From a virus (Duplodnaviria > Caudoviricetes), in the IMG/VR virus record IMGVR_UViG_3300013125_000024, positions 1-32,493 of that record: DNA of 32,493 bases. One strand, written 5' to 3'. Both the position numbers and the translations under genes were made by a program. Positions 1,528 to 31,000 of the stretch are shown here, in pieces. Position 1 is the stretch's first letter. Every line of letters starts with the position of its first letter. A model generated the notes under the pieces. That model worked only from the letters and a program-made list of their open reading frames with translations, ran no database searches and was not told where the DNA came from.

Positions 1528-2121
1528 GTGCTGACTCCGCCTGTCATCTACGCTGAACTGGCGGCTGCACGAACTGCGGGTCAGTTCGGCTTTGCAGGCT
1601 ACAACTTTGATCAGTTGGCCTGGGCCATTGCCTATGCAGTGTCCGCTTGGCTCAAGACAGCAGGGGTCACTCTCAGGGGGGTTGCAGTAGGTACGGCGGG
1701 CGTGGGCACCATCAATGTTCCTGCTTCCAAATTGTTGCTGGCTCCGAACCCCTCCTTGGTCATTTCCGGGCTGCAAAGCGCAGGGATGAACGGTCCGCTC
1801 TCGGTGTCCTTGGGCACTGTTGTGGCTATCGGATTGGCTAAGGCAGTGACGACCTACGGTCAGTATGCCGGGGGCGTTGCTGGAGTGGGTGTGGGAGGCG
1901 ATGTGTCGAAGGCTGCAACCGTGAATGCACCCAGTCTGATCTCCCAGTTGAAGGTCTTCATGGCCTCCATCCTGGGACCTGGTGCAGCGTCGGCTCAGAT
2001 GGCAACAGGTCTCGGGACGGGCATTGCAGCATTGGCCCTCACGCTCACCGGAGTGGGTAACGTGGTGGGATCTCCCAGCCTCGTCTCGGCGTCTGGGCAG
2101 TCAACCTCTGTGGTGGTTTGA
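1528..2121 (+). CDS. Gly/Ala/Val-rich hydrophobic 197-aa virion-associated protein with three internal repeats
   Basis: The GTG start directly abuts the upstream TGA and the ORF fills the gap to the next gene. Repeated helix plus Gly-rich strand units. Function unknown. Confidence 0.8.
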   Translation: MLTPPVIYAELAAARTAGQFGFAGYNFDQLAWAIAYAVSAWLKTAGVTLRGVAVGTAGVGTINVPASKLLLAPNPSLVISGLQSAGMNGPLSVSLGTVVAIGLAKAVTTYGQYAGGVAGVGVGGDVSKAATVNAPSLISQLKVFMASILGPGAASAQMATGLGTGIAALALTLTGVGNVVGSPSLVSASGQSTSVVV

Positions 2122-2123
2122 TC

Positions 2124-8100: not shown

Positions 8101-11100
8101 GCAACGTGGGCACCTATGCCTACAGCAAGGTGAACTCCACGACAGGGAAGGCAGAGAGCACCCACAACGAGCAGGTCGGCCAAGTGGCCAATCCGGTGCG
8201 GGGTGACATTGAAGCCATCTCGGTGAGCACACTGCGCCCTCGTGCAGCCCGTGCCCGCATCTGGGGCTACTACCCCAACGGGTTGCCCACAGCGGCCTTT
8301 GGCACGGCCATTGCCCGCCCTTGCATGGTGCTGTCGGCTGTCCCCCTGGCCCAACTCCCCATCTCGCCTCTCACGGGCTTCCCTGACCCCACCAAGTTCT
8401 TGTCCCAGTCGCCTACGGGCACGGTGCCAGATGCAGTTGCAGGGGACCCCGAGATGGCACTCCCCGGCTTCAAGGCAGGGGACAAGATTGCTTTGGGCAG
8501 ACCGGACGGCAGCTTCCTGGTGGCGGCCTACCCCGAAGAAGTGGACGTTTTCGGGCAGAAGATGTTCACGGCGGTTCTGATTGACACGGTGCAGTTCGGC
8601 TGTGTGGTGACATTCAAGAACCGCAAGGGTGCAGCCATTCTGTCCCCCAGCAAGATCCTGGTGGCGACAGCACCCAACGAGGGCACACCTGCGGACCAGT
8701 TCGGTATTGACAAGGCCGACACCCTCTACATCGTGCCTGCGGACACGGCAAACCCCATCTCAGACCCGGCTACCCAGTCGGCCACGATGGCAATGGCACA
8801 GCAGGCTGCGGCCACATCCCCGGCGTACCGGCAAGGCTTTGATTTGACGGTGCGGCCCGACGGCAGGGTGATGGACCAGTCGCTGCCCTCGTGGACTGAC
8901 CCATTCATGTTCCCTGTCAAGGAGATCCTGGGTCAGAAGTCACCCAAGCCCATGAGTCACGTCGAGGGTGTCGCCGATTTTGCCAACATGGATGAGGTGC
9001 CCATCGAGTTCCCTGCCCTTCAGGGGGCTGCACAGGACGACTCGGGCGACTACCAGATCCCGTACCGCAAAGGCACGGCCACAGAAATCGACCGCTTTGA
9101 TGAGCTTGGCAATCTTTTGGGCAGCCTGATGGCTCGGGATGTCTTGGCAGGTGGCTACTACCCCGACGAGATCCTGTTCACCAATGGTGAGGTCTTGGCT
9201 GCGGCGGTGTCTTTGGGCGGTGGCTCCTACAAGGAGCCCGCAACCCTGATGGCCCAGGCAAACGTGCTTCCCACGGCGACCTATGGTGCGGCCCCAGCGC
9301 GACCCGGTGACTTCGTGCTGGTTGATGTCGGGGGTGCAGAACCCGGCTGGCAGGGCATCCTGTCAGTGGGTGCCGTGCGGGAGCAGAACATCGGTGGCAC
9401 CGATTGGTCTTGGATTGAGCCCCCTCGGTTCCGTACCCAGACGAATAAGGGTTCACCTAGTCAGTATCTACTGAATAACTATGCAGTCCACACGACGCCG
9501 GGCAACTACCCGGTCAATCCTCAGGTGACCAACCCGCCTGGTGTGCGGATCTTCGATGATTCCGCTGGGGTCAAGACCATCCTGTCCTTCCAGGACACGG
9601 TGCTGGCCCTCAACGATGGCTCGGTACTGAGCACGGGCAACTTGAATGCCATCTTGGCGGCAGACCCTGCCAATGCCCTGGTGGTGAAGATCCTGAGCCG
9701 CCCAGATGGCACGGCTGTCAATGCCCCCGCAGGTCCTGGCACCTTCGTTCCAGCGTTGCAGGATGGCCGTCCGCTTCTGACGATCCACATCACGGGTGCA
9801 GCGGTGGTGTTCACCCCAGACCCAGCTCTGGGTGCCCCCGTGGGTGTGGCGCACCTTGGCGTGCAAGTGGGAACCTTTGACCCTGTGACGGGTGAGGTGC
9901 CTCCGGGCACCGTGGCAGACAGCAGGCACATCATCATCGATGGCGTCACTGGCTTGGCCTTCTTCAACGCGGCCTTCTTTGGTGCGAACTCCGACTGGTT
10001 CCTGCCCTTCACGGTAGCAGGCACTTTGCAGTCGAGTGCTTATGGCTGGGAGTACGCTCTGGACGTGGACTGCACCGCAGGGGGTAGCACCTCGGCCTTT
10101 ATCGGTTCCGACCGGTTGACCTTCCATGAGGCCCTGGACCTGCGGTTGTCCCGGCCACGGGATTTCATGCTCACCAACCCGAACCCACCGGGCTACAACT
10201 ACGAGACAGGTTTAGATGTCACGGGCGTTACGGTGGCTCTGGGTTCTCCTCCAGCACCTCCTGTGTTCTCGGGCATCAATGACGTGGCTCCGGGTGCTCT
10301 CAGCTTCGTGAGTCGGACAGGCTCCACGACACTGGCAGGTGGAACTTGGGCACCGGCCCCCACTCCGGCGGATGAGGGTACGCTGCGGGTCATGGCCTTC
10401 GAGTATGGAAACACTCCCATCACGGCATCCAACATCGTGGCCTCTGTGCAGGCTTCGCAGACGGTTGACCCCGCAGGCGGCGACATCCTCACGGGCAATG
10501 GTGTGGCCCTCCAGAACTGGATCTCGGCCATCACACCGACGGCAGGCCTAGTGTCCCAGGTTCTGAAGGGCGATGTGGTCTACATTGACCGGGCAGATTT
10601 AGCCCATCCTGATGCGGCCACGGAGAAGGCAGGCACCTATGTCGTCCGGCACGCGGTCGAACCTGATGGTGTGCTGGCCTACAAGGCCGTTTCGGTGAGT
10701 GCCCCAGTGGGATCTGGTGGTGGCTTCATCGCGACCCGGTTCCCTCGGGTGTTGTCCATCGACGTGGCGGGCTCGCGGTTGGCGCTCGACGACTACTCCA
10801 TGCTCCCTGCCACGGGCAAGGTCTTCATTGTGGTGTCCTACTCCGGGTTGAACAGTTCCGTGGCGGGCATCTTCCAGAAGGCCCTCATGAGCATTGACTT
10901 CACGGGACTGGACGGCTTGGGGCTCATCCTGGGGGCCGCCAACACTTGGCGCTGGGCGGATGACTCTATCATTGTGGCTCCTCTCACCGAGGTCACCAAC
11001 ACGATGGTGGCAGGCCAGTTGTGTTCCTGGCACGACACGCCAGTTGCAGGTGCAGGCCCATCCCTGCCTGGCCGTATGACCCTGAAGGTGGCGGTGCGTG

Positions 11101-13295
11101 GGGGGCAACTGCCCGATGACTCATCTGTGGTGGGTTACCACGACTCCCCAGCGGTGGCGACTTACGGCTTCAACGCTCTGACTCTGGAGAACTATGGGCC
11201 AACAAGCATCGTGGCTCCCAACATCCTGATGGGTGCCCCCGCCGTGGGCCAGGCTCAGGTCACTCCCGCAACTGTTTGGGCCAGCGGGACCTTTGATCCC
11301 ACGAATGCCGAGGCGGTCTACGCCGACGTGCCCGCCACTTTGGTGCTGTACCTCACCAACCTCCAGGGGACGACACTCAATGACCCCCAGAACCATCTCG
11401 GTGGTGGCCCGGGTGTCGCCTGCCTGCTGCCCAATACGGAGGTGCGGACGGAGACAGCAGGTGGGCTGCCCGGTTTCTTCGCTCGGGGCGGCGTGTTCAT
11501 TGAGCCCTCTGTCCCCAATCAGCCGGACATCTTGGGTGCCCTGGCAGTGCCAAAGGTTGTGGATGCTTCGCACTCGCTGCTCTTGGCGCAGGTCGGGATG
11601 CGTTCGGCAGCCACTGCGGAAGAAGTCCACTTTGAGGTACGGCGGGTACGCCGTTGGCACAGCAAGCAGAATGCGCTGAACGATGCCTTCCAGCCGTTGA
11701 AGTACGCCTACGAGATCCGCAGAGGTACCATCACAGGCTTCAGCCGGGATGCACAGCAAGTAGGTCTGGTCACTGCGGCTTCGGGAACCAACCTGGGTGG
11801 CTTTGATTCGGAGGACGTGAACATCCATGCAGGGGACATCTTCAGGGTCACCGATGCCCTGGGCACGGTCTTGGCTGATGGAGTCATCTCCGAGGTGGTG
11901 AGCGCGACGCAGATCAAGATTGCGGCCCCAGGGCTGGCCGTGGCTGCGGCAACCGTGGTTGGCCGGTCCTTTGAAGTGTACTTGCGGCAGTCCCCCTGCC
12001 CGCACGAGCAGTCCAACGAGCAACTACTTGCCCTCATCACAGACAAGGTAGTTCACCGGACCTGGGCAGACCGCACAGACCCTGATCCGCAGAACTGGAC
12101 TGGCGGTTACGTCCCCGAGACAGATGGCACGGCCAACTGGGTGGACGTGTGCAACGTCCTCTACGATGACTCCCCTGGGGTGAACTTCACCGCGCTGGGC
12201 GTCAAGCGGGATGACATTGTGGTCATCGATCCTGTGGGTGTGTTCCCTGCGCCTGTGGTGGACGAACGGGGCTTCCGGCCCTTGGGGGATAGGAGTGTGC
12301 CGACCCGGACGGCAGCGGTTGGCCCGACGCCGTACTTGCCTGGTGCTGTGTCGAGCTTGGACGACAACCGGGGCTTCTACCGGGTGACGGTCGTACACGC
12401 AGACCATCTGGAGGTCACGCCGCTGCACACGTTTGCAGGTGGGCTCGGCACCGATGTTCTGATGGCCAGTGGCAAGACCAACCTGGTCTATGCGGTGTAC
12501 CCCACGGTCAGTTCTTCAGTGCTCTCAGTGGACGGGGCTGAAGGGCAGAATGACCTGCGGCCCACCCGCAAGGCGGTAGGCACGACCTACACGAGCATGG
12601 ACCCCGTGGAGGACAAGCACTCGATCCGACCCTTCAGCTACTTCATCATCCGGCCCACGACCATGTTCTCCAAGGCTCTGGTGGACACTGTGCTGCTGAT
12701 GCGGGAGCGGATGCTGTCCCTCATTGAGATGCTGGGCACGGTCACGAGTGGTGCCCGGGGCGGGTTCTACTGGGATTGGCAGAATGATGAGCACATCTCA
12801 GACCTCGGGGACCCACTGGACCCGGAGTCTGGTCTGGGCCTGTTCCCCAATCGACTGGTTGTGGGCTTGCTGGGGGAGACAGGTATTTCTCCCTTCTGCA
12901 ACAACAGCACCTGCCTCTCGCTGCTGGACCGCCGGTTCTGGGTACATGACGTGCGGCTTGACTCCCTTGCACCAGACCCGAGCAATCCCTATGCAATGGT
13001 CACGGCAGTCCTGCCCTTTGATCAGCCGGGTGGCCCCTACACGGCCTACACCGACACGGCGACGCTGACGGGTGGGTCGGAAGTGCGCCCTGTCCTGACG
13101 GATCATCTGGACCTGATCCTGAACGTCCGTGACAGGTTGCGGGGGATTCGGTACACCTGGTTGACGTACAGGACGAACCGCTTCCGGGGTACACTGGCGC
13201 GCATTGACCAGTACAATGCGGCATTGCCCAAGCTGCTGGCCGACCGGCAGCGGGCCTTGTTGCTGGAAGCCTCTGTGGGCAAGGTGAGTACATGA
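2124..13295 (+). CDS. Giant (3723 aa) beta-rich structural protein, probably baseplate/tail associated
   Basis: Uninterrupted 11.2-kb ORF. ATG at 2124 is preferred over TTG at 2118 (2 nt after the upstream TGA; TGGTGG at 2111-2116). Rich in G/P/T/V, with tail-protein-type motifs (EQGVDYIL, LAEGTEFSLDSETGVVQL) and a helical C-terminus. The ORF is secure; the function is inferred from context. Confidence 0.85.
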   Translation: MGFTFDGHVLRAPLLAPGNAATSGEPINGVVRDVRRPPATRNAAQPQVSGMPGIRALVDLCGDQYRAAVLHAPGTSPHEYLVWAANSSQLALVSDPSWWTNLGTGSIPVGTETVGNLVTPTAPYKDGTLRLVVADNGDREISTITHLVVARGDKTYNDLGWVNQDNPAAGRLGTAPYEVVAPAAADQNGTSGLVTLKNYNVYTATGSGLTAGTLAAVLGGGLSLKRGDKIQEVRYTVAPLKFWWTRNDRYETRFGWDGKLQRWKPYKGSAPVNLGKLAYDTAYTLKPKMRTLPLGAILTGDASSPDEYAMVRLGTSPGAQSLPVGLHDPDGFTGIEVVADADVGPYDFSGKILAGVVGQNSGILKFNPVYAQKNVGKVVWYVYSTFSAEADGVLGPLQGADTNPLYLAPIPGPTDHPFIRIQNRTPLTVTQVDTEADLVAVADPMEGTCLVAQSTGRLRLSPTDIAKANPKNLSQFSKHFLGASVIYEGVALNARPQPTRSPVPLVQADGVTTTLAPVAPMYLPRSQVWPEDIEGTSLESYMGLGVSGVLQMPDGTGAVPTPELVDPAGVSVPVRPGGDTLFPSPQSLGLVLTIADGVGDTILFSQAGAIPEVLVVDRQSDVPLLPFQVPGGKAYISKQIQPLPVIGWGAKVQLGSADRTAFVGKKVYFLQASLNPATYTDKARLYSKGRIIFRFDGTEVLYFAIGGVIHDWHASSLPSQSFYSADEVAASIQARITAQGGTGLATAVGDRICLETVNPNTGTVEIGWGTVKDLSGCAALGFLPGWRAKGGKPNWLSDAGISLGLSRSLLNLDRSKATSDYRARTRLENVTLADSIQSSPFTFLDYPPVEDISGFDDGVFFNLQTVSTQGADVQLIDKRLEHFEDIQYRFPEGKFAWLEQEVSSNQVQQKTTALALGRAAVVPETLLGAPGIGGGLFTAESGGRYAFQEQGVDYILPDDGLPGVAQLVTRYGALVLTGAQGAFTQGGTTFTDPTADFLADSTDPDIDPATGQQRIDNLGDLVWLPVLREGFRIKLPSGSYLVTAVTDATHAEVTPAFVSSSTRPTPWEAYIGIADSLYDPAIVADVTYKPFDHLQDEPFKVRVLSPLGTIAGSDFSAFVADAVAKGRLISLRFGPVHASTGVMATLTPLAVTSLGVVANNVLVAPWTVHVAEGAFQIRVGTETYTPVPVMSFSPNPVGVEYLTGAWNDGVTVHPQGELKFAASVLSDLQSSQVVLAETLRVSTNLASGQAEYDPKTGALRIAAADVSTHAGKMLYFVEQMITKGVYRDVGVSPLVGAVSFTKPMSPGALVEMVYWLADTEGRRVGTPTDTVTEFLPVFVRGEVATRLSDREFELDPNGVQVWDDRMEPVVYIGPTQQNFGTVDFTTDRPGNLKGLRLNFNRAMATWIDPVATYAVFNAQGGERTYSTSQSPVYRPPFFIQAKRDNFGLRGDRTADFVPGQMLRLGAECFYLTQIRYFAPTDQTRIDIYPPTTLEVGSRSPGNDVLALITSVPITTMLYPDGPTPVPTTAKAGFMQVVPTTTFPFEPVNARQASMTFRGDLSQFAVPGHIMEIGGKPFTIAQVTLNDDGTRTQLAFTTAFQQAVDPAGTTIKLSYRPVYPPEVREFVGKGPVVASEGTELILFGETIGGIEQPGRSLAEGTEFSLDSETGVVQLLGPLQAPLGPGQRLVLAFTQMRVLEPFFSGGTVVFPRWSANYRYNTIPSNDNGFLGGRLTATYTFDNPDTFYFRALPLKSYLGEALTQALAEMSQGQPSSGPRLTTTAGTQNWEQGNTGLLAQQRDLFQKDRAARAFLSFYNDTIVAFEQVDETITGEFIGDRSGKFRFFVGRGLEYAPPGYEDEITGDLNPNNIWAQVFNEADPTRNITFLAGKDPLVIPVSCTMTNLLLSGPPLGVSTLGHLQYQQVLRVRNDVDDVLLLQASKPRKVTTSAPPYFTVQNGGIYSRMGLPHKFSRLYPTTAGVFFTLQPGIEADLAAGNVGTYAYSKVNSTTGKAESTHNEQVGQVANPVRGDIEAISVSTLRPRAARARIWGYYPNGLPTAAFGTAIARPCMVLSAVPLAQLPISPLTGFPDPTKFLSQSPTGTVPDAVAGDPEMALPGFKAGDKIALGRPDGSFLVAAYPEEVDVFGQKMFTAVLIDTVQFGCVVTFKNRKGAAILSPSKILVATAPNEGTPADQFGIDKADTLYIVPADTANPISDPATQSATMAMAQQAAATSPAYRQGFDLTVRPDGRVMDQSLPSWTDPFMFPVKEILGQKSPKPMSHVEGVADFANMDEVPIEFPALQGAAQDDSGDYQIPYRKGTATEIDRFDELGNLLGSLMARDVLAGGYYPDEILFTNGEVLAAAVSLGGGSYKEPATLMAQANVLPTATYGAAPARPGDFVLVDVGGAEPGWQGILSVGAVREQNIGGTDWSWIEPPRFRTQTNKGSPSQYLLNNYAVHTTPGNYPVNPQVTNPPGVRIFDDSAGVKTILSFQDTVLALNDGSVLSTGNLNAILAADPANALVVKILSRPDGTAVNAPAGPGTFVPALQDGRPLLTIHITGAAVVFTPDPALGAPVGVAHLGVQVGTFDPVTGEVPPGTVADSRHIIIDGVTGLAFFNAAFFGANSDWFLPFTVAGTLQSSAYGWEYALDVDCTAGGSTSAFIGSDRLTFHEALDLRLSRPRDFMLTNPNPPGYNYETGLDVTGVTVALGSPPAPPVFSGINDVAPGALSFVSRTGSTTLAGGTWAPAPTPADEGTLRVMAFEYGNTPITASNIVASVQASQTVDPAGGDILTGNGVALQNWISAITPTAGLVSQVLKGDVVYIDRADLAHPDAATEKAGTYVVRHAVEPDGVLAYKAVSVSAPVGSGGGFIATRFPRVLSIDVAGSRLALDDYSMLPATGKVFIVVSYSGLNSSVAGIFQKALMSIDFTGLDGLGLILGAANTWRWADDSIIVAPLTEVTNTMVAGQLCSWHDTPVAGAGPSLPGRMTLKVAVRGGQLPDDSSVVGYHDSPAVATYGFNALTLENYGPTSIVAPNILMGAPAVGQAQVTPATVWASGTFDPTNAEAVYADVPATLVLYLTNLQGTTLNDPQNHLGGGPGVACLLPNTEVRTETAGGLPGFFARGGVFIEPSVPNQPDILGALAVPKVVDASHSLLLAQVGMRSAATAEEVHFEVRRVRRWHSKQNALNDAFQPLKYAYEIRRGTITGFSRDAQQVGLVTAASGTNLGGFDSEDVNIHAGDIFRVTDALGTVLADGVISEVVSATQIKIAAPGLAVAAATVVGRSFEVYLRQSPCPHEQSNEQLLALITDKVVHRTWADRTDPDPQNWTGGYVPETDGTANWVDVCNVLYDDSPGVNFTALGVKRDDIVVIDPVGVFPAPVVDERGFRPLGDRSVPTRTAAVGPTPYLPGAVSSLDDNRGFYRVTVVHADHLEVTPLHTFAGGLGTDVLMASGKTNLVYAVYPTVSSSVLSVDGAEGQNDLRPTRKAVGTTYTSMDPVEDKHSIRPFSYFIIRPTTMFSKALVDTVLLMRERMLSLIEMLGTVTSGARGGFYWDWQNDEHISDLGDPLDPESGLGLFPNRLVVGLLGETGISPFCNNSTCLSLLDRRFWVHDVRLDSLAPDPSNPYAMVTAVLPFDQPGGPYTAYTDTATLTGGSEVRPVLTDHLDLILNVRDRLRGIRYTWLTYRTNRFRGTLARIDQYNAALPKLLADRQRALLLEASVGKVST

Positions 13296-17628: not shown

Positions 17629-17651
17629 GTCTATACCTGCGGGCAGGTGGG
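17629..17651 (+). promoter_or_regulatory. Recurring intergenic motif, copy 1 (GTCTAT...GGTGGG), candidate phage late promoter
   Basis: GTCTAT ACCTGCGGGCA GGTGGG in the 46-nt gap before the gp25-like gene. The spacer is 1 nt longer than in the other copies and contains the inverted repeat ACCTGC-gg-GCAGGT. Confidence 0.45.
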
Positions 17652-17665
17652 AGGTGCTGGAGAGC

Positions 17666-18790
17666 ATGTCACTCGATTTTCAGTTGGCCTGGCCGTGTCC
17701 ACACCTGACGGTGGAGGAAGTTGTTCCTTTGGGGGCTGACCGCATGTCCCTCAAGGTCCGGCAACCTATTGCGGCTCTGGGCACCGTGCTGGTCATGATC
17801 AACGATGACCCTGACCTGTACGTCCCTCGGAACGGTTTGCAGTCGGCAGCATTGCTCTCCAGTTCCGTTTCTGGCCCCTTTGACATCAAGCAGAATGAGG
17901 ACGTGCTCACGGTGGAGACTTCCACGGGCACGGAGACGCTGACCTTTGGTGCTAAAGGCACCATCAGGCGGACGACTGACCAGGTGATCAAAGCCATCCA
18001 GAAGGCCAACTGGACACATGTGTCGGTCAGCAACGACCATGGCTACCTGGTGCTGGTAGACCCAGACACCCTGGGGTCTAAGGCATTTGTCAAGGTGCGG
18101 GGACCCGCAGCAGCGGGGCTGGGCTTCGGGCAACCAGGAGTCTCCGCTCGACAGTGGGTGGCCTACGGGCGGGAAGTCTACCCGGGCTGGGACCTCTATT
18201 TGCGTCCTGACGAGATCACCAATCGCTACATCCGGTTCCGCAAACCTTTGCAAGGCAACCCGATGATCAAGGTGACCTACTCGGCTCCTGTGCAGCGGTG
18301 TTTGCGGTGCCGGGCTACCTTCGTGGAGAATGACTACCGCTTTGATGAGTCCGGGTCTTCCATCCTCATCCAGAATGAGGACCTGCTCTACCAGGCGGTG
18401 CTCAAGATTCTTCTGACCGACCTGGGGTCCAACCCGTTCCACCCGTGGTACGGCACCTCGATTCGGCAGCGCATCGGGTCCAAGGCGCTGATGGGCGTAG
18501 CCTCGGTGCTCAGTGAGGATGTGCGGCAGGCGCTGAGCCGTTACCAGGCTCTTCAGACGGAACAGGCCAAGTACCAGGTGGTGAGCTTCAAGGAGAGGCT
18601 GTACGGCATCCTGGGTGTGGACGTGAAGCGACACCAACAGGACCCCACGACCTTCCTCATTGATGTCACCGTGCAGAATGCTTCAGGGACGCCCATCTCG
18701 CTGAACATTGTCTACACCGTGCCGGAGGTGGTGGCCCTCATGGGCAGTAATTTTATGCTGTTGGGTGCAAATCCAGTTTCGCCTCAGTGA
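17666..18790 (+). CDS. gp25/gpW-like baseplate wedge protein with a long N-terminal extension (374 aa)
   Basis: ATG at 17666 (MSLDFQLAWPCPH) follows GGAGG/GGAG; the ORF-track start at 17447 overlaps the previous gene. C-terminal LYQAVLKILLTDLGSNPFHPWYGTSI matches the gp25-family ILxTxxGxxPFxPxYG pattern, followed by helix and beta strands (ERLYGILGVDV...FLIDVTVQN). Confidence 0.8.
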   Translation: MSLDFQLAWPCPHLTVEEVVPLGADRMSLKVRQPIAALGTVLVMINDDPDLYVPRNGLQSAALLSSSVSGPFDIKQNEDVLTVETSTGTETLTFGAKGTIRRTTDQVIKAIQKANWTHVSVSNDHGYLVLVDPDTLGSKAFVKVRGPAAAGLGFGQPGVSARQWVAYGREVYPGWDLYLRPDEITNRYIRFRKPLQGNPMIKVTYSAPVQRCLRCRATFVENDYRFDESGSSILIQNEDLLYQAVLKILLTDLGSNPFHPWYGTSIRQRIGSKALMGVASVLSEDVRQALSRYQALQTEQAKYQVVSFKERLYGILGVDVKRHQQDPTTFLIDVTVQNASGTPISLNIVYTVPEVVALMGSNFMLLGANPVSPQ

Positions 18791-19442
18791 TGTGCGGACA
18801 ACCTCCCCGGTACTTGGCCCAGTTACAGTTGTGGCAAAGCACTTGGAATAGGCCCGCAGGGTAACCTTGCTGTCTGGCCCACCGATAGACTCCATAGCCC
18901 GGCAAACTTCTCCTGTGCTGTGTCCCTCCGCCCTGAAGATGATCCAAGGTAAGGAACACGAGTTCTGTTTCCCCACAGCACGAACATGCTCCGCCATAGG
19001 CTCCGAGGACATCTGCCCGGAGGCGCTTTCGGTGTAAAGTTGCTTTTTGCCTCTCCTTTGGGGCAAGCCTTTCGTGGTGGTCTTTTCGATACTGGTTCGC
19101 TTTGGCATAAGTGCAGGGAATGCAGGTAGTAGCCTCTTGGAAGAAGGGGCCAGGTTCCCCACATACGAAGCACGTCCCATCAAACGCAGCACGGTGCTTG
19201 AGGGTGTTAGGATCCTGGTGAGACCGCCATCGTGTGTAATGTTTGATGCAGTAACCCCGGGCTTTCAAGGGCAGGGCGCAGGTCGGGATGGTGCAGGTGG
19301 ATCTGGGTTGCTTTGGTGTCTCTTTGATTCGGATGTTGGGGTCACCATGCCGTCGCCACCTTTCATAGTGTTTCCGGCACATTCCCCGACTGGTGGTCGC
19401 TTGGGCACAGTTTTCCAGTTGACATTGTCCGCTTCGTTTCAT
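18753..19442 (-). CDS. HNH-type endonuclease with N-terminal Cys/His zinc-finger repeats (229 aa), HNH-B
   Basis: ATG at 19442 with GGAGG 8 nt upstream. Two CxxxxC-x6-RGxCxKHYxRWRxHxDPN repeats, a CxxC...CxxC pair, then YGGACSCCGE..FLTLDH..GGG...LCHNCNWAK..GGCPH. Confidence 0.85.
   Translation of the reverse strand: MKRSGQCQLENCAQATTSRGMCRKHYERWRRHGDPNIRIKETPKQPRSTCTIPTCALPLKARGYCIKHYTRWRSHQDPNTLKHRAAFDGTCFVCGEPGPFFQEATTCIPCTYAKANQYRKDHHERLAPKERQKATLHRKRLRADVLGAYGGACSCCGETELVFLTLDHLQGGGTQHRRSLPGYGVYRWARQQGYPAGLFQVLCHNCNWAKYRGGCPHITEAKLDLHPTA
18817..18836. repeat. 20-bp exact direct repeat, copy 1 (GCCCAGTTACAGTTGTGGCA)
   Basis: Identical to 19466-19485; encodes CHNCNW(A) of the HNH on the minus strand. 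Confidence 0.9.
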
Positions 19443-19710
19443 GGGGGCACCCTCCATTAGACTTTGCCCAGTTACAGTTGTGGCAGAGGATCTGGTACTC
19501 CCGTGGGAACTCCAGGGCAATGATCTGGTCGTAGACCTTGATGAGCGATCCGGCGGACTGGACGTGCTTGCGTCCTCCACCATGGACGTGATCGATAGCA
19601 AGAAAGACTTTCCGGGTTTCCCCGCAACAAGTGCAACGAGAGCCATAGGCTGCAAGTATCCGTTCCCGTTTCACCTGGAAGATGGAGTTATTCACACTGC
19701 ACCTGGTCAT
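19363..19710 (-). CDS. Minimal HNH-type endonuclease (~115 aa), paralog of HNH-B, HNH-A
   Basis: YGSRCTCCGE..FLAIDH..GGG...LCHNCNWAKSNGGCPH. ATG at 19710 chosen as start, but there is no clear RBS and the frame is open up to 19845. Its 3' end overlaps the start of HNH-B by 80 nt. Confidence 0.75.
   Translation of the reverse strand: MTRCSVNNSIFQVKRERILAAYGSRCTCCGETRKVFLAIDHVHGGGRKHVQSAGSLIKVYDQIIALEFPREYQILCHNCNWAKSNGGCPHETKRTMSTGKLCPSDHQSGNVPETL
19466..19485. repeat. 20-bp exact direct repeat, copy 2
   Basis: Identical to 18817-18836. Confidence 0.9.
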
Positions 19711-19729
19711 AGGCTTTATGGTGACACAA

Positions 19730-19757
19730 ACAATCTGCCTGGCTACAGGCAGATTGT
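19730..19757. promoter_or_regulatory. Perfect 12-bp inverted repeat with a 4-nt loop (hairpin or operator)
   Basis: ACAATCTGCCTG-gcta-CAGGCAGATTGT, about 20 nt upstream of the HNH-A ATG. Followed by TTGTGT on the minus strand. The structure is seen directly; the role is inferred. Confidence 0.65.
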
Positions 19758-19772
19758 AAAGGGCGTTGATTT

Positions 19773-19795
19773 GTCTATCGCAAGCCTTGGTAGAG
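19773..19795 (+). promoter_or_regulatory. Recurring motif, copy 2 (GTCTAT-N11-GTAGAG)
   Basis: GTCTAT CGCAAGCCTTG GTAGAG. Both hexamers and the spacing are identical to 24824-24846. Confidence 0.6.
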
Positions 19796-19808
19796 TGCCG
19801 TTCTGCGC

Positions 19809-19904
19809 GGCCTACTTCTAGGGAATCAGCCCACCGGGTTGACACCTGCTGAGTCCATGCAGATGTTCAGCACAGACCGGAACACCTTGACGGGAGGCCG
19901 CTAG
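19809..19904 (+). pseudogene. Stranded putative original 3' end of the gp25-like gene (31 codons + TAG)
   Basis: Reads GLLLGNQPTGLTPAESMQMFSTDRNTLTGGR*. Its TAG overlaps the GTG of the next gene (TAGTG). The first residues resemble the present gp25 tail FMLLGANP. The frame is closed upstream by TAG at 19791. Confidence 0.55.
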
Positions 19905-22900
19905 TGGCTAACTACCCTGAGTTCATGGGCTCTGATGGCGTCCTGCGCCAGAACTACGTCCTGACCACGACGATTTCTACTCGGTTGTTCACGGGCACCA
20001 TCCCAGTGGACGCGGTGGATGTGCAGGTTTCGGTCCGTGGGGCGACGTTCACCTCGGACCCAGACTACATCACCTTCGAGGGTTCATCTTTCACACTGCC
20101 CAACCCCTCGGCGTTCCCTACGGGCTTGCAACTGCTGCCTGGTCGCAATGACGTTCGCATCCGGGCCATCCTGTCCAACGGTTCAGTGACCCAGGAAGCC
20201 ACGGCAGAGGTCTATCTCTCGCTTGAAAGTGACGTGGGGGACGTGGCTGATGCCCCCACAGGCATCTACCTGGAACGGTTCGACGACACGGTGAAGATCA
20301 CGGTCGATGGTTTGAACCCGCCGAACAGCACGGTGGTGGGCTACCACTTCTATGCCTCGTCTTCGCCTGGTGGCGGCACCGCAGGCTACTACCGGATCAA
20401 CCCCGCTCTGGTCATTTCAGGATCGGTGTTCGAGGACGTACAGGCGTTGTCGGCCCTCTCGGTCGATGCCTCTGTGGTGGTCGATTCTGAGGGTGTGACC
20501 GCAGCCGACCCCCTGTACTTCCGGCTCAAGGGCACCCAGGAAGACCGCAACGCCCTTGTCCTGGCGACCAACTTCAACGAGGTCATGGAGATCCCAGAGA
20601 ACACTGGGCGTTTCCGTGTGGAGACAACGGTCTCCACGGTGCGGGAGACGAATCGGTTCAGTTTCACCCATGACCGTCAGGGCACGCTGAACACGACCAA
20701 CCCGGCGTTGCCCCAGTCCACCTTGGCCTCAGTCCCCCCAACGGACCCGCTCTACTACGTCGTGACAGCGGTTCACCTGCTGGCTGACGGGACAGAGGTG
20801 GAGAGTGCCTTCAGCCCTGAGGTGCTGGGGTCCCCTCTGCGGGTCACCCCCAACGTGGGCAACTTCCCTCAGGTGAGTCGGCAGCAGATGCTGCGGGCCG
20901 CCGTACAGTCCATCTACCGCTCGCACCCCCAGATTCGGGTGGACCCGGGCTCCGCGCTGCGGGACACGTTCTTGGACCCCTTCACGACGGAGGCCGACCG
21001 CATCCGTTTCGTGATGGACTTCCTGCACAATGCCCAGAGCTTCACGACTTTGCTGGCGATTGATGACCCGACCCTGTCAGGGACGAGCATCCCTGTGGCT
21101 CAGTCGAGCTACAAGGTGGCCCTGCGGGAGGCGTTCTTCCTCACGTCGGATGCCGCCGTCCAGACCATCATTGACAACTGCTTCGACAAGCTGGCGAGCA
21201 ACTACGGGCAGCACCGAGATGGTGGCAACAGGTCTCGTGGTGAGGTGACTTTCTATGTCACGGCCAAGCCTGGCTCGTCCATCTCTCGACAGATTGGCAC
21301 GGTGGTCGGCAGTGGATCAGCCACCTTCCGCACAACTTCTTCGGCAACCATCTCGCCGGCAGGTGGCGGGCGGAACTACAACCCCGCGACTGGCAGGTAT
21401 TTCGCTCGGGCCTTCATCCAGGCGGATGCCCCAGGTACGGCAGGCAACTTGGCCGCTGGCCAGATCAGGGTCATCTCGGGCAACACCCTCAACGTCCAGG
21501 TGGTCAACGAAGGGCCGACCTTTGGCGGCACGGATCGGGAGTCCAACTTGGCCCTTGCTGAGCGGGCGATGCGGGTCTTGTCCGCCGTGGATTCGGGCAC
21601 TTTGCAGGGCTACAAGGACAATGCCATCAACGTGCCCGGAGTTGCTCAGGTTTCAGTCATTGAGGCAGGCAACGTCCTGATGATGCGGGACCGCAACAGC
21701 GATGGCCGTCACGTCGGTGGCAAGGTGGACATCTACTTGAGGGGCGAGAGCGTCTCCAAGGTCACCGACTCCTTTGCCTTCGCCTTTGATGTCGGCGAGA
21801 ACATGCAGTTCGAGCCTGTGGGGGACTTGTCAGCCCTGCGCTTCCGGGTCATTGACCCTCGGGTCACAGAGGCCATGCCTCTCATCGAGATGTTAGACCT
21901 GCCGAGCTTGGGCCTGGTGTTCGAGAATGCCACCCAGGGCTACGCCTTCGACCTGACGGATGTGCAGTATGGCCCCTACAACGAGATCGTCCTGTCACCG
22001 ACCTACAACGACCCGACGGCACACACCTTGGGCGACCAGTTCAGAGGCAGCTACCGCTACCGCACGAGCAACAAGTTCGTGCTCACCCGGCAGCCTGCCA
22101 TTGAAGTCTCGTCCTTCTCGGGCACGGTGACCGGCGAGGTCACACCTGGCATCTACAACCTGTACCGGGCGGCGGACCCATTGGATGTGGGACGGTCGAG
22201 CTTGGCAGGGGACTACATCCAGGTGCTGGAGCCTGTGAATTCCTCTGGGGCAACCATCCCTTCGGGCACCCCAGTTACAGTCACGGATGAGGCACATGTT
22301 CTTCTGGATGGCATCGAGTACCTGGACAACCTGGGGGCCAACTACCTCACGGTGCGGATCTGGAACAGCGACCGGACCACTGAGTACAACGGTCCCCTGT
22401 CCAATTTGACGCGGGACTTCACCATCGTTCCTGGCACCGAGGTCAAGCCGTTGGGTTTCCTGCTCACAGATGGGTCCCGGATGAAGGCCGGGGACACTGT
22501 GCTGGCGGACTACAGCCACGATGAGAACTTCACTGTGGCATACACCAGCAACGCAGTCGTGTCGGTGGTCCAGAACATGCTGGCGACGGACTCACATCTG
22601 ACGGCAGACGTGATTGCCAAGTGGGCTGTCGAAGTCCCTGTGGACATCGAGGCCACCATTGCCATCGAGTCTGACCAGGTGCCAGACACAGTGGATGCAC
22701 GGGTGCGGACGGCCCTGACGACGTTGTTTGGTGCCTTCGAGCTTGGCACCCCCATCCGGCAATCCGACGTGATCCGGGCCATTGATGAAGTTCTGGGGGT
22801 GTCCTACGTCGTGACCCCCCTGGTCAAACTGACCTACGGTGATGGGGCACTGCTGGTGCGGGAAGCTCTGACCACCGCCATCGAAAGTGATGCCTTCCAG

Positions 22901-23401
22901 GTGGCCGCCTGGTCATCTCCCACGGTCAAGGTCTACCTGATCAAAGAGTCACTCAGGGCGGCCACGACCTCCGCAGGTGGTCCTGCCCATGAGTTCCGGG
23001 GCGTTTTCCAAGATGAGGTGCGGATCGAACACCAGGAGACAGCGCCCAACTACAATGGTTACCCACTGCTGGCGTCCGCAGGTGGTGCCTACATCATCGG
23101 GGCTGATGGCCTCGACATCCCGGGCTATTCAGACGACGCCACTATCGTGGCGAACTACGTCCTGCCGACCAACACGGACGAGCGGGCAGCGGAGGTTCTC
23201 CGCATTCGCAAGTCTTTGACAGCGAACCGGGTACTGGTGAGCCTAAAGCCTGGTGGCACCCCGGAGGACACGCCGCTGCGGCACAACTACACCGTGACGT
23301 ACATCGTGTCCGGGGACATTGGGGTGAAGAACATCGCGCCTGGTCCCATTTCATACTTGGTCCTGGGCGACTTGAACTTCTCGTATGATGAGGCGACCTG
23401 A
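19904..23401 (+). CDS. Baseplate J / T4 gp6-like wedge protein, extended (1165 aa)
   Basis: GGGAGG RBS and GTG start. J-family-like segments VDPGSALRDTFLDP, RSRGEVTFY, IQADAPGTAGNLAAGQI, FGGTDRESNLALAER, GKVDIYLRG and LGTPIRQSDVIRAIDEVLGVSYV. N-terminal ~310 aa look Ig/FN3-like (VVGYHFYAS...YYVVTAV...ESAFSPEV). Confidence 0.85.
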   Translation: MANYPEFMGSDGVLRQNYVLTTTISTRLFTGTIPVDAVDVQVSVRGATFTSDPDYITFEGSSFTLPNPSAFPTGLQLLPGRNDVRIRAILSNGSVTQEATAEVYLSLESDVGDVADAPTGIYLERFDDTVKITVDGLNPPNSTVVGYHFYASSSPGGGTAGYYRINPALVISGSVFEDVQALSALSVDASVVVDSEGVTAADPLYFRLKGTQEDRNALVLATNFNEVMEIPENTGRFRVETTVSTVRETNRFSFTHDRQGTLNTTNPALPQSTLASVPPTDPLYYVVTAVHLLADGTEVESAFSPEVLGSPLRVTPNVGNFPQVSRQQMLRAAVQSIYRSHPQIRVDPGSALRDTFLDPFTTEADRIRFVMDFLHNAQSFTTLLAIDDPTLSGTSIPVAQSSYKVALREAFFLTSDAAVQTIIDNCFDKLASNYGQHRDGGNRSRGEVTFYVTAKPGSSISRQIGTVVGSGSATFRTTSSATISPAGGGRNYNPATGRYFARAFIQADAPGTAGNLAAGQIRVISGNTLNVQVVNEGPTFGGTDRESNLALAERAMRVLSAVDSGTLQGYKDNAINVPGVAQVSVIEAGNVLMMRDRNSDGRHVGGKVDIYLRGESVSKVTDSFAFAFDVGENMQFEPVGDLSALRFRVIDPRVTEAMPLIEMLDLPSLGLVFENATQGYAFDLTDVQYGPYNEIVLSPTYNDPTAHTLGDQFRGSYRYRTSNKFVLTRQPAIEVSSFSGTVTGEVTPGIYNLYRAADPLDVGRSSLAGDYIQVLEPVNSSGATIPSGTPVTVTDEAHVLLDGIEYLDNLGANYLTVRIWNSDRTTEYNGPLSNLTRDFTIVPGTEVKPLGFLLTDGSRMKAGDTVLADYSHDENFTVAYTSNAVVSVVQNMLATDSHLTADVIAKWAVEVPVDIEATIAIESDQVPDTVDARVRTALTTLFGAFELGTPIRQSDVIRAIDEVLGVSYVVTPLVKLTYGDGALLVREALTTAIESDAFQVAAWSSPTVKVYLIKESLRAATTSAGGPAHEFRGVFQDEVRIEHQETAPNYNGYPLLASAGGAYIIGADGLDIPGYSDDATIVANYVLPTNTDERAAEVLRIRKSLTANRVLVSLKPGGTPEDTPLRHNYTVTYIVSGDIGVKNIAPGPISYLVLGDLNFSYDEAT

Positions 23402-24823: not shown

Positions 24824-24846
24824 GTCTATACGCCGGAAGGGTAGAG
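24824..24846 (+). promoter_or_regulatory. Recurring motif, copy 3 (GTCTAT-N11-GTAGAG)
   Basis: GTCTAT ACGCCGGAAGG GTAGAG in the 58-nt gap, ending 25 nt before the ATG at 24872. Confidence 0.6.
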
Positions 24847-28000: not shown

Positions 28001-31000
28001 ATGGCCTTCACTCCGCCCACGGACCCCAAGGACTCCTACGAACTGAGTCCTTTCGGCTTTGGCCCCTTCCCGGTTCCTGGGGAGTCGGTCGAGGTTGCGC
28101 CCCCTCATCCTGAGGGAGGTGGCTACGGCGGCGTGGGCTTCCTGGTGGTGGACGGCCAGGCTCCCGGGGGCACGCCCTATGGCCTCGGCTCGTATGGTTC
28201 ATCTTGGTTCCGGCGGCCCCGCAAGAACATTGATGGCGGCTATGGTGGTGACCCCTATGGCTTTGGTGGCTACGGTGGCACAGAGAATGTGTCCCCCAGG
28301 GTGTCCTCGGCCATCTCCATCACAGCCTTCGAGGTGGAGGTGTTCTTCTCGGAGGATCTCGACACCAGGAACTCAGCCCTGACCGACCCCGCGTCGTACA
28401 CCCTGGAGGCCATTGCAGGGGCCGCTCCGGCCACGGTCCTCTCGGTACATGTGGAGCAACTTGGCTCGGTGAACTTGGGCGCTGGGGATACCATCGCTGG
28501 AGCCTTGTCCGTCATCTTGACCCACACGGGCACGACTTTGGGCGGGACGTACAAGGTTCATGCCCAGAACGTGACTGACATTGCTGGCAATGTCATGTTG
28601 GATGTGGGTGCCTCCTTCCTGGCTCGGGGCGCAGCCCCCCAGTTCGTGGCGGCCCTCCCCCAGATTGACACGGGCGACCAGGTGGGACTCACCTTTGACC
28701 AGGACATGCTCAGGGCCGCCGATGAGCCTGGTGCTGGTCAGGGTATCTCTGACCCTGCGTCCTACGAGTTCACCTCGCAGGTGGCGTACCCCATCTCGGT
28801 GATACCTGTCACGGCAAACCATGAGCCGAACCCCAAGAAGGTACTCCTGACCGTCCGGGGGATGACTTCCCTGACCTACGACCTGTTGGTGGGGCCTGCC
28901 TTTGCCTTCAGCTATGACACCATGGCAGGGTTGAAGAATGCCATTCGCATTGACACGGGTACGGGTACTGTGGCCATCAGTGGCAGCAACCTGATCTTGA
29001 GCCGAGCGAAGAACAACGTCCTGGGCATGGAGTGGCAGGACACGAGTGGCACCATCGTGCCCCTGACTTCAACCTTGCGGGCGGACATCGCCTTTGACTT
29101 CAGCAACACGGCCTACGACCCGGCCATTGGCACCTTCCCTCTGCCCGAGGTGGCAGAGGTGGTGTTCCAGGATGGCCTCCCAGGCGTGGGGCTTCTGGTG
29201 CGAGCCACTTTGCAGTACGGCCTGGCAGGAGTGGAGCAGATCCGGCTCCGGTCTGGCAGCTTCGATGTGCCATTCGATGCCACTTGGACGGGTGGCAGGC
29301 ACACACTGTCCTTTGTTCGCAACCAGAAGGCCGGCACCTTCGCCTTGGTGCTGGACGGCCTCCCCTTGGGGGCTACGGCCATTGGCAACTTGGATGGGGT
29401 GCCCGAGACGCAGGCCGGTTTGCGGTTCTCACTCCTGTCAGGCGGCTGGGACATCTCTGGTGTGCGTGTAGGTGCGCTGAAGGTGACCTCATCCACGACG
29501 GTCTACTCCGCAGCTTGGAACTTCTTGCATGAGGGCGTGGTGTCCTTCCAGGGCTCCGCCGTCTTGACACGGGACACCGTGGAGACGCAAAGAGGTCCCC
29601 TGGTCAAGGGATGGGGCGATGCAACGCCGGCAACCAAGCAGGACGTGGCCGTGGTGGTCAATGGTGTGGCTGTCGAGGTCGCTGATGTCAACCCGTACAT
29701 CGGCAAGATTCGCACGACAGTCCCTATCCCGTTGCTGCCCCCGGGTGACCCCCAAGCCAGCGTGCAGGTGGACTACCAGTGGTTCAAGTCCCCGATCATG
29801 GAGTTCGCAGGATTGAACACAGAGGGCCTGGTCCTCAACAAGTTCGACTGCAACAGGCGGGGGCATCACGACCCAACGGCACCTGGCGATCAGGTACAGG
29901 TGCTTCCTGGTCCTGATTTCTTGGCAGAGCCCGGGGAGCCCAAGGGGGCCGTGGACATCCACCGTTTCCCAATGGGTGTCGTGCTCGGACCGATGCTTCG
30001 GGCTAAGCCACTCTACATCGGGCACAGATACATGGGCTTTGAGCGGGCCTACTCAGCTCTGATGAACAGCCCCACGACTCTGACCTTGAACCAAGCTCCG
30101 AATCGAGCTTCTGTGCCCGGTTTTGACCGGACGGTGCAGGGCGTGAGTGTGGCCTATGAGGGCTTGGTCAAGCCGGGAGCCTCGTCCCCTGCTTGGGCTC
30201 TATCAGGGACGGATGATGGCGGGGTGGACCACAGTGCTACGCCGGGCATCGACTTGGGCACCTACACGGTCATCGACGCACAGACAGGATCTTACCTGCC
30301 CACCGCAGAGCAGGCTGTGGTCTACAGGCGTGGCGTGGACTTGTCCTTCTTGTCGAGCATCAGCTTGGTGGCTCGCTTCCAAGTTGCTTCAGGCAATCTG
30401 TTTGATGCGACCCACCCGGCGACCCGGCCTGTCTCTACTACGGTCACGACCCCGGAGGGGGTGTTCACGGGCGTGGGCTTTGGCATCCACGACAACCAGC
30501 GGCTGTATTTCTGCGGTGCGCTCCTGGTCAACGGCGTGGAGCATGTGGGGCTCTTGCTCAACCCGAAGCGGCCCCAGGAGGCCACATCATGGAGCATCGG
30601 TCCCAGGGGCATTCTGACGGCTTCCAGCCAGACTCGGGGGGCACTGCCCACAGTCCAAGTTCCTGTGGGCTTCACCTCTGGTTCCCGCTTTCAGATTCTC
30701 ACAGGCCCGCAGGCGGGGGTTTACACCGCGACCAGTGTGGTGGCTCAGACGGGGGGTGCCACGACCGTGGAGTTCACTCCGGCACTTCCGGTGCCCTGGG
30801 ATCAGTGGGGACAGAAGTACCCGGAGGTTACCTTCGAGACGAGGACGACGGCCAAGCCATTCACCTACCGGCTGGACATCCACACGGATCAGCAGGTGGC
30901 AGAACTGCGCATCTCGGGTGAAACCCAGGGCGTAGTTGCTGCGATCGATGGCAACGTCCCCGCACTGCCTGTTCCGGCGGCTACTTCATTGCTACTCCCG

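Follow-up and report, generated by a model that had tools for sequence, protein, structure and literature searches.

Mobile endonuclease elements that give a host gene a new 3' end are an established design in fungi. The so-called mORF gene hybrids are found in the mitochondrial atp6 gene of Allomyces and in atp6, atp9, cox2 and nad3 of Glomus (PMC3630166), and WHO elements occupy the yeast gene FBA1 (PMC7282813). Here, we describe a related arrangement in a phage. In the stretch of DNA analysed (the window; positions 1 to 32,493 of the Caudoviricetes record IMGVR_UViG_3300013125_000024, from a giant lake phage), a 1057-nt insert at 18752-19808, carrying two antisense HNH endonuclease genes (HNH-A and HNH-B), interrupts a gp25-like gene just upstream of a baseplate J-like gene. 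The HNH pair is probably an unspliced, site-specific homing element at an Asn|Gly codon pair, which gives the host gene a short, degenerate tail that it likely carries with it; the host's own tail is left stranded downstream and is likely untranslated.

As in the mORF hybrids treated in PMC3630166, the endonuclease element lies near the 3' end of the gene, the new C-terminus is in frame, the native end is stranded and stays close to that of empty relatives, and there is no splicing, which for the window is a prediction. However, the mORFs covered in that source carry a faithful homologous end of 50-240 nt and a LAGLIDADG or GIY-YIG nuclease, whereas the window has 12 codons from which a conserved Gly is lost, an antisense overlap with the end of an HNH gene, a second allele whose tail stands at the chance level, and a phage structural gene as its host. 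WHO elements, in the parts of PMC7282813 that deal with them, likewise replace the 3' end and push the old end rightwards to decay or deletion, and several nuclease families can be found at one locus. They differ in carrying about 400 bp of functional 3' gene, in their intein-related nuclease and tandem clusters, and in that cleavage has been shown (PMC7282813); the window element belongs to a phage, is of the HNH type, antisense and made of two open reading frames (ORFs), with no clusters seen and with cleavage predicted from its sequence.

Partial likenesses also exist among phages. An intron-less HNH gene inside a coding region is known from mobE in nrdA of phage Aeh1 and from mobA of T4 (PMC2988022); in the account of Aeh1 given there both enzyme pieces are translated, whereas here the downstream piece is start-less and, in a second occupied allele (L028, from another phage), lost. 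Inserts in virion structural genes are represented by the introns of the LittleE capsid gene, with its bottom-strand endonuclease ORF, and of the BAKA tail gene (PMC3706429). As that source presents them, these introns are spliced; the exon ends in U and the intron in G, and space is required for an RNA core. Neither the end rule nor such space is found in the window. The hidden HNH in phage methylases such as that of ShiLan is also a homing HNH outside introns and inteins, with DNA read in two frames, but the part of PMC11855218 concerned has ShiLan read through in the host frame at full length, while the window dual-codes 12 codons only and the host gene then stops. Finally, the HNH proteins recall F-CphI and Endo VII, the DHHRN type (PMC6083498, in its treatment of these motifs), in that a D-H core and a distal Asn lie between pairs of Cys, and an element at the same junction in another locus, L141, has DHDH. 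HNH-A and HNH-B fall outside the DHHRN type, which calls for a central DHDH and a conserved Arg: they have DHV or DHL in place of DHDH, and in HNH-A the position following the downstream His, basic in most relatives, is a Val.

A phage case of 3'-end replacement, or of its parts, was not found in open-licence PMC and bioRxiv texts, and a term search of the accessible text of a 2026 preprint (10.64898/2026.08.13.744650) gave no phage case. What is new at this locus is the antisense two-gene nuclease, the tail that overlaps the end of its gene, the presence of two occupied alleles, and a rival element.

Results

Layout of the interrupted gene

17666 to 18751, plus strand: body of the gp25-like gene, 362 codons from ATG 17666, ending in the conserved MGSN motif
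18752 to 18790, plus strand: new tail of 12 codons and a TGA, supplied by the insert and antisense to the last 12 codons of HNH-B; the TGA is at the homologous place in L028
18753 to 19457, minus strand: HNH-B, 234 aa; the start at 19457 is common to L028, with an alternative at 19442
19363 to 19695, minus strand: HNH-A, about 110 aa, a bare HNH domain without N-terminal Cys repeats; GTG 19695 is the preferred start and ATG 19710 the alternative
19809 to 19904, plus strand: stranded original C-terminus, 31 codons and a TAG
19904 to 23401, plus strand: baseplate J-like gene, directly downstream (Pfam Baseplate_J, E = 2e-16)

The initial annotation of this DNA had read the gp25-like frame as MGSN followed by FMLLGANPVSPQ and a stop, and this was confirmed, with the TGA ending at 18790. 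The downstream frame is start-less as described: 31 codons are open at 19809-19904, a TAG lies six codons upstream (19791-93), and no ATG, GTG or TTG precedes the first codon. Its TAG does overlap the J gene, G19904 being common to the stop and to the J GTG, and the spacing of 1057 nt was reproduced. Joining the 362 and 31 codons gives a product of 393 aa, the same length as in the closest uninterrupted relatives, P0001 and P0243. Neither terminal repeats nor a target duplication were present, in agreement with the annotation; the strongest direct repeat lies within the insert and links the end of one HNH gene to that of the other. The GC content of the insert is 54%, compared with 59-61% in the flanking genes. 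Two points required correction. The annotated HNH cassette does contain nuclease sequence, but as two genes, both antisense; and the insertion does lie inside the gene, but to say that it splits the gene is too strong, the junction being past the last predicted strand. Altogether, the comparisons below support the view that an element landed inside the gene, that the downstream frame is the original end and that the cassette provides a stop and a new tail.

A misassembly, which the annotation had named as a possible refutation, was also considered. Single contigs cover the whole stretch in five of the eight public DNA runs, from five separate assemblies, although all five runs are possible sources of the window DNA and so are not independent. 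The same layout is present in an independent phage, L028, and the artefact is thus largely refuted and can be given virtually no weight. The joined (empty) form was not seen in the eight runs, in which contigs drop rare variants. A further locus, L062, has the same sequence as the window, and we did not treat it as independent. Relatives of the window phage occur on contigs of up to 536 kb, and the best cultured matches are weak (29-30%), which places it in an uncultured giant-phage group.

Empty alleles and the stranded frame

The annotation had also named a comparison of insertion-free homologs as a possible refutation. These were examined at the junction and were found to have GLxLG-type ends that match the stranded frame, so the annotation was not refuted. 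Homologs were drawn from the 120 listed of 446 matches, which leaves 119 once the L028 protein is removed; that these proteins come from empty alleles is what we infer from their sequences. Asn precedes the junction in 117 of the 119, and it is followed by Gly at +1 (118), Leu at +2 (116), Leu at +4 (117) and Gly at +5 (115). The closest listed homolog, P0001, has 393 aa and a body 93% identical to that of the window, and the stranded frame matches its tail at 25 of 31 residues; the native end is therefore stranded downstream and closest to that of empty relatives, as in the mORF and WHO systems. Furthermore, the stranded frame was the top profile match among 52,073-58,023 peptides of the window. 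These sequence comparisons indicate that the stranded 31 codons are the ancestral end of the gp25-like gene. Five pairs of empty alleles with more than 85% body identity share on average 26.6 of 31 tail residues, so the value of 25 for the stranded tail shows no clear decay and fits a recent arrival.

A search with the junction pattern returned 26 viral loci, 25 uninterrupted and one occupied. With a looser pattern 70 loci were recovered; after six non-gp25 matches were removed, the remaining 64 encode a gp25-like protein, and J begins 28-107 nt past the junction in 61 of them, two have inserts and one has no J match. The distance from the junction to J is 96 nt in close uninterrupted loci and 96 + 1057 nt in the window. 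The element thus sits at a fixed place near the 3' end of the gene, at the same codon in the window and in L028, and this place is empty in relatives. Inside the stranded frame, GGAGG at 19893-19897 is likely the ribosome-binding site of J. Natural tails of six to seven residues occur directly before J in the uninterrupted loci L156 and L206.

The Leu codons at positions 2-4 of the stranded tail are rare in empty sites (0, 0 and 1 of 43). The first codons (19809-19823) include CTA, CTT and CTA, and a small CCUA/UAGG stem is possible there; CTA makes up 9 of the 633 Leu codons in four large genes of the window.

A second occupied allele and lateral movement

L028 was found through HNH-B and contains both ORFs, with the same +1 frame offset and inserted at the same codon. 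Its gp25-like protein is 57-58% identical to that of the window. In a gp25 tree of 119 rows, from which the short proteins P0051 and P0057 were left out, the window is sister to the uninterrupted P0001, with a branch of about 0.05 to P0001 and P0243, and L028 stands beside the uninterrupted P0111. A single clade of the window and L028 was rejected (p-AU 9e-8, 37 chosen rows), which indicates that the HNH pair has moved sideways relative to the host gene.

The L028 gp25-like protein ends in FLLERRPSP and a stop, and its HNH-B reads on across the junction. A stranded tail is not recognisable there: 67 nt lie between the start of HNH-A and J, and they gave no significant match to the tail profile. 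A possible decayed relic picked out by eye (AVFMGT) ranked fourth of 774 positions, which is not significant, and was rejected. When further alleles of the cassette were sought in viral contigs and proteins, only L028 and a one-residue variant, P0122, were found.

The new tail

The annotation had called the new end a mimic of the old one, with xxLLGxxP in both. In the window the likeness is real: in a single register, picked post hoc, the new tail has four of eight residues in common with the stranded one (p = 0.002; BLOSUM p = 0.0006), and it fits the family profile at three lengths (p = 0.006-0.007). Of the eight bases conserved in the empty site it retains six; the other two, GG at +1/+2, are replaced by TT. 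The Pro occurs in 17 of 118 homologs and is no family feature, and the L028 tail is at chance, with a profile p of 0.15-0.16 (0.12-0.16 over tests) and three of eight conserved bases, so mimicry holds above chance in the window and is not a conserved feature of the element. In both occupied tails the near-invariant Gly is replaced by Phe and an F-(M/L)-L run is present, to which the window tail adds L-G; as DNA, the two tails align with a 2-nt offset. The sequences of the two alleles would fit either degeneration in L028 from a motif-like ancestor or drift of the window tail towards the motif.

A one-off recoding of the gene end after landing, as proposed in the annotation, is less likely than a degenerate tail carried by an element that has homed repeatedly. 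Its suggestion that the element may destroy its own target site agrees with the junctions. Neither of them rebuilds the conserved site: the left one has TT for GG at +1/+2 in both occupied alleles, and the right one is without 18 of the 20 conserved upstream bases; the occupied site may thus be immune.

The antisense HNH genes

HNH-B has two N-terminal Cys/His repeats of the form CxxxxC..RGxCxxHY, along with a third Cys cluster, and its C-terminal domain, in which D-H and CxNCN are found, is HNH/EndoVII-like (PHROG HNH endonuclease, E = 1e-15). Its stop lies 1 nt from the left boundary of the insert, and the 12 new codons of the host are therefore the antisense of its last 12 codons. HNH-A overlaps the start of HNH-B in the +1 frame in both alleles; it matches Pfam Endonuclease_7 (E = 0.004) and PHROG HNH (E = 2e-6), and its best database match is a 90-aa protein. 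The D-H core and CxNCN are present in all four proteins (HNH-A and HNH-B of the window and of L028), as expected of the HNH, or beta-beta-alpha-metal, class. Compared with L028, with which 61-66% of the amino acids are identical, the proportions of synonymous (pS) and nonsynonymous (pN) differences are 0.77 and 0.27 for HNH-B and 0.80 and 0.21 for HNH-A; synonymous sites are saturated and pN is low, indicating that both frames are conserved as proteins under purifying selection. The closest database relative of each ORF is the L028 copy or its one-residue variant. A programmed +1 frameshift fusing HNH-A and HNH-B was considered and set aside, its only support being the shared frame offset.

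NCBIfam gave no match for any of four proteins, no solved structure matches HNH-B by sequence, tblastn within the window found no copies beyond the two HNH domains, and the 3' non-coding part of the insert had chance-level matches only in phage records. Among 118 further matches of HNH-B (P0123-P0240), 88 are single chains with two HNH domains spaced 83-204 residues apart (median 104), a share that is inflated because two matches raise the profile score; a literature search gave no description of such chains as phage homing nucleases. By analogy with this biased share, HNH-A may be a second catalytic unit. It groups with neither domain of the double-HNH proteins and is nearer to single-domain relatives of HNH-B, which fits a duplication.

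Two features lie upstream of the HNH-A GTG.

19715 to 19726, minus strand: TGTnnCCATAAA motif, which may be the cassette promoter and shares 10 of 12 bases with L028
19730 to 19757, no strand assigned: perfect 12-bp inverted repeat with a 4-nt loop, absent from L028

In both alleles, 19 nt separate the end of the TGTnnCCATAAA motif from the HNH-A GTG; the motif occurs once in the window. The region of the inverted repeat folds with z = -2.98 on the plus strand and -2.18 on the minus strand, and the L028 spacer with z of about 0. The 12-bp hairpin is just upstream of the candidate antisense promoter and is followed by T-rich bases on the minus strand. Scans of 18500-20200 for sigma-70 promoters and terminators found nothing.

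In a 536-kb relative (L209:1285-3462), a same-family HNH gene is convergent with a gene that by eye is peptide-chain release factor-like, and it also adjoins an ORF that by eye is LAGLIDADG endonuclease-like.

A second nuclease at the same junction

The gp25-J junction attracts nucleases. In L141, a sense-strand EndoVII-type gene with a DHDH core (2372-3097), unrelated to HNH-A and HNH-B, lies between the gp25-like gene and J; a distinct 14-residue tail precedes it, and there is no stranded piece. This tail type, GL(F/M)L(G/S)QxL(S/T)GTN, was found in three proteins far apart in the tree. Similar tails are those of P0016, P0050 and P0242, and the four proteins do not form one clade, although the group was named after the first tree was seen and 37 chosen rows entered the AU tests. 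The fourth protein, P0242, is in the window's own 90% cluster, beside two empty alleles. The tail type is linked to a nuclease gene in L141 only (one of four proteins), and a search with the L141 nuclease found itself only.

The gp25-like protein and other genes

The body of the gp25-like protein matches Pfam Sheath_initiator below the cut-off (E = 0.0019) and a PHROG baseplate protein (E = 9e-6). By fold it is weakly similar (E = 0.008-0.017) to a T4 baseplate chain of 126 residues and to a putative tail lysozyme; homologs are named baseplate assembly protein W, and the gene order, upstream of baseplate J, fits a gp25 / sheath-initiator gene. In models of the occupied and the empty allele alike, the former built on an alignment of empty alleles, the last predicted strand ends at residue 351, the junction is at 362|363, and residues 353-374 have a predicted local distance difference test score (pLDDT) under 50. 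The gp25-like fold, a domain modelled with moderate confidence, is thus predicted to be left whole by the insertion.

The N-terminal 210 residues (17666-18350) fold confidently, with pLDDT mostly over 85, and weakly resemble domains D2-D3 of the flagellar cap protein FliD (E about 5e-4, TM about 0.2); such an extension is unusual for gp25. Upstream of the gene is one further feature.

17629 to 17635, plus strand: CTATA-containing motif, candidate late promoter

Of 27 distinct upstream regions, 24 have CTATA no more than 70 nt before the gp25-like start. Another copy is at 24824-24830 of the window, and the motif is a candidate late-promoter element of the giant-phage group. In L149, the 70 nt upstream of the gp25-like start are without CTATA and appear coding-like, and another insertion may be present there. 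Elsewhere in the window, a 3725-aa ORF (2118-13295) and a 1497-aa ORF open at its 3' end (28001-32491) have no Pfam match at E 0.01; both are likely large virion proteins.

Discussion

The homing element that we consider probable would act as follows. When an empty genome co-infects, the nuclease would cut its conserved site around MGSN-GL(M/F)LG, and with the occupied genome as repair template the cassette would be copied in together with its short tail. The cassette would be transcribed from its own antisense promoter. The change of GG to TT at +1/+2 in both occupied alleles would help to make the occupied site immune. The host could tolerate the insertion because the junction comes ten residues after the last predicted strand, within a C-terminal extension of which only five residues are conserved, and the hydrophobic F-(M/L)-L run of the new tail, in the window also L-G, may aid this tolerance. 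The recipient's end would be pushed downstream and kept at first, intact in the window because the arrival was recent, and would later be lost, as in L028, except for the ribosome-binding bases of J (GGAGG in the window, GGAGA in L028).

Several points weigh against this account. Cutting and homing by the HNH pair are predictions, and only two occupied alleles of the cassette were found. The carried homologous tail rests on one allele (p about 0.006, with three lengths tried), the L028 tail being at chance, and the first five tail residues of the family are strongly conserved. The gp25-like domain is modelled with pLDDT of only 50-75, and low confidence in the tail of a monomer would be no proof that the tail is dispensable in the baseplate. 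The closest empty alleles, P0001 and P0243, are known as proteins alone, so the estimate of stranded-tail decay comes from protein comparison. The divergence of the cassette (61-66%) is similar to that of host genes (46-58%) and taken alone would also fit old vertical descent, which is disfavoured because of the tree and the fresh stranded tail. For the same reasons of evidence, a carried homologous end supported in the window and not in L028 (p 0.15-0.16) and a predicted cleavage, the element is not placed as a full mORF- or WHO-like member.

The same unspliced cassette could have a tail that is chance read-through into the antisense end of HNH-B, tolerated as dispensable, its likeness being luck or later host adaptation. 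We regard this as rather unlikely, though a serious alternative: it accords with the L028 tail (p 0.12-0.16), with loss in both alleles of the Gly conserved in 118 of 119 homologs, with the six- to seven-residue tails of uninterrupted loci and with a new stop that arises from the antisense of the H-(I/L)-T codons of HNH-B. The window tail, however, keeps six of eight conserved bases and L4-G5 in exact register, the 2-nt-offset alignment would allow the L028 tail to be a frameshifted version of a motif-like ancestor, and antisense reads at the same offset of the HNH ends of L029-L057 show by eye no xxxLG-like start. Ordinary tail-module recombination or a rare illegitimate insertion, in place of cutting by the element itself, would suit a nuclease activity that is so far a prediction and a same-family HNH at an unrelated intergenic place in a related phage, but we give it little credence: two distant lineages have the cassette at the same codon, their host sequence is native as far as the junction, D-H and CxNCN are retained in both ORFs, which are under purifying selection, and a second nuclease family is at the same junction. 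Alternatively, translation of the stranded tail might begin inside it, at the TTG of codon 11 or the ATG of codon 17 or 19, and yield a separate peptide that joins the baseplate, like the split NrdA of Aeh1; T4-like phages provide precedent for this (PMC2988022, as far as its Aeh1 account goes). Such in-frame starts are present, but the conserved GLxLG lies before them, inspection by eye shows no good ribosome-binding site ahead of them, and the piece is missing in L028, all of which makes the proposal highly improbable.

The annotation had named a spliced intron as its alternative. The HNH genes would then lie antisense within the intron, an arrangement known from mycobacteriophage LittleE, and the stranded frame would be exon 2. 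Such an exon would be intact and conserved (25/31), spliced introns with a bottom-strand endonuclease do exist in virion genes (PMC3706429, in the cases it covers), the 3' non-coding part is structured (z -2.98), and the beginning of the stranded tail, with its rare synonymous codons, is reminiscent of a co-conversion tract. A P1-like pairing, a 7-bp hairpin with U-G at 18748, can also be drawn by eye and counts against the unspliced homing element. The boundaries do not agree with an intron, however. Only two joins restore Asn-Gly, 18750/19807, where the exon ends in A, and 18751/19808, where the intron ends in C, so each breaks the group I U|...G| rule on one side or the other, and every join that obeys the rule changes or adds residues. 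The HNH-B stop is 1 nt from the 5' end, and 113 nt are non-coding in the 3' part, compared with 265 bp for the ORF-less BAKA intron (PMC3706429, in its BAKA data). Three Rfam scans gave no relevant match and no P3-P7 core, although divergent introns can escape Rfam, and the saturated synonymous sites of the HNH frames likewise do not point to such a core; folding of the 5' junction is at the level of shuffled sequences (z +0.45), the two junctions pair no better than random pairs, and L028 is without exon 2. Group II introns have the ends GUGYG...AY, which the insert boundaries do not fit, and Rfam showed no match for domain V. An intron is thus disfavoured and appears improbable. An insertion sequence of the DDE or HUH class does not describe the insert either, as there is no transposase, terminal repeat or target duplication.

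A broader proposal, which is tentative and which we think possible but doubtful, is that the last conserved codons of this gene are contested by two or more unrelated homing nucleases, each of which would carry its own version of the gene end into distant phages. The window's nuclease would then be a two-subunit HNH enzyme, in which HNH-B finds the site and the bare catalytic HNH-A cuts the other strand, a split counterpart of the single-chain double-HNH proteins with a host-saving tail on the back of its last codons.

Taken together, the unspliced homing element that we favour would illustrate a way for a nuclease to enter a structural gene of a phage by homing without the help of an intron or an intein. 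The route would be to land in a short terminal extension and to give a stop and a few tolerated residues, after which the old end decays, and the window and L028 resemble an early and a late stage of this one process. One 90% protein cluster spans empty alleles, the HNH cassette and the rival tail type, which makes allele-specific cutting testable. The locus is also a warning that odd, patchy C-termini of phage virion proteins can be homing footprints.

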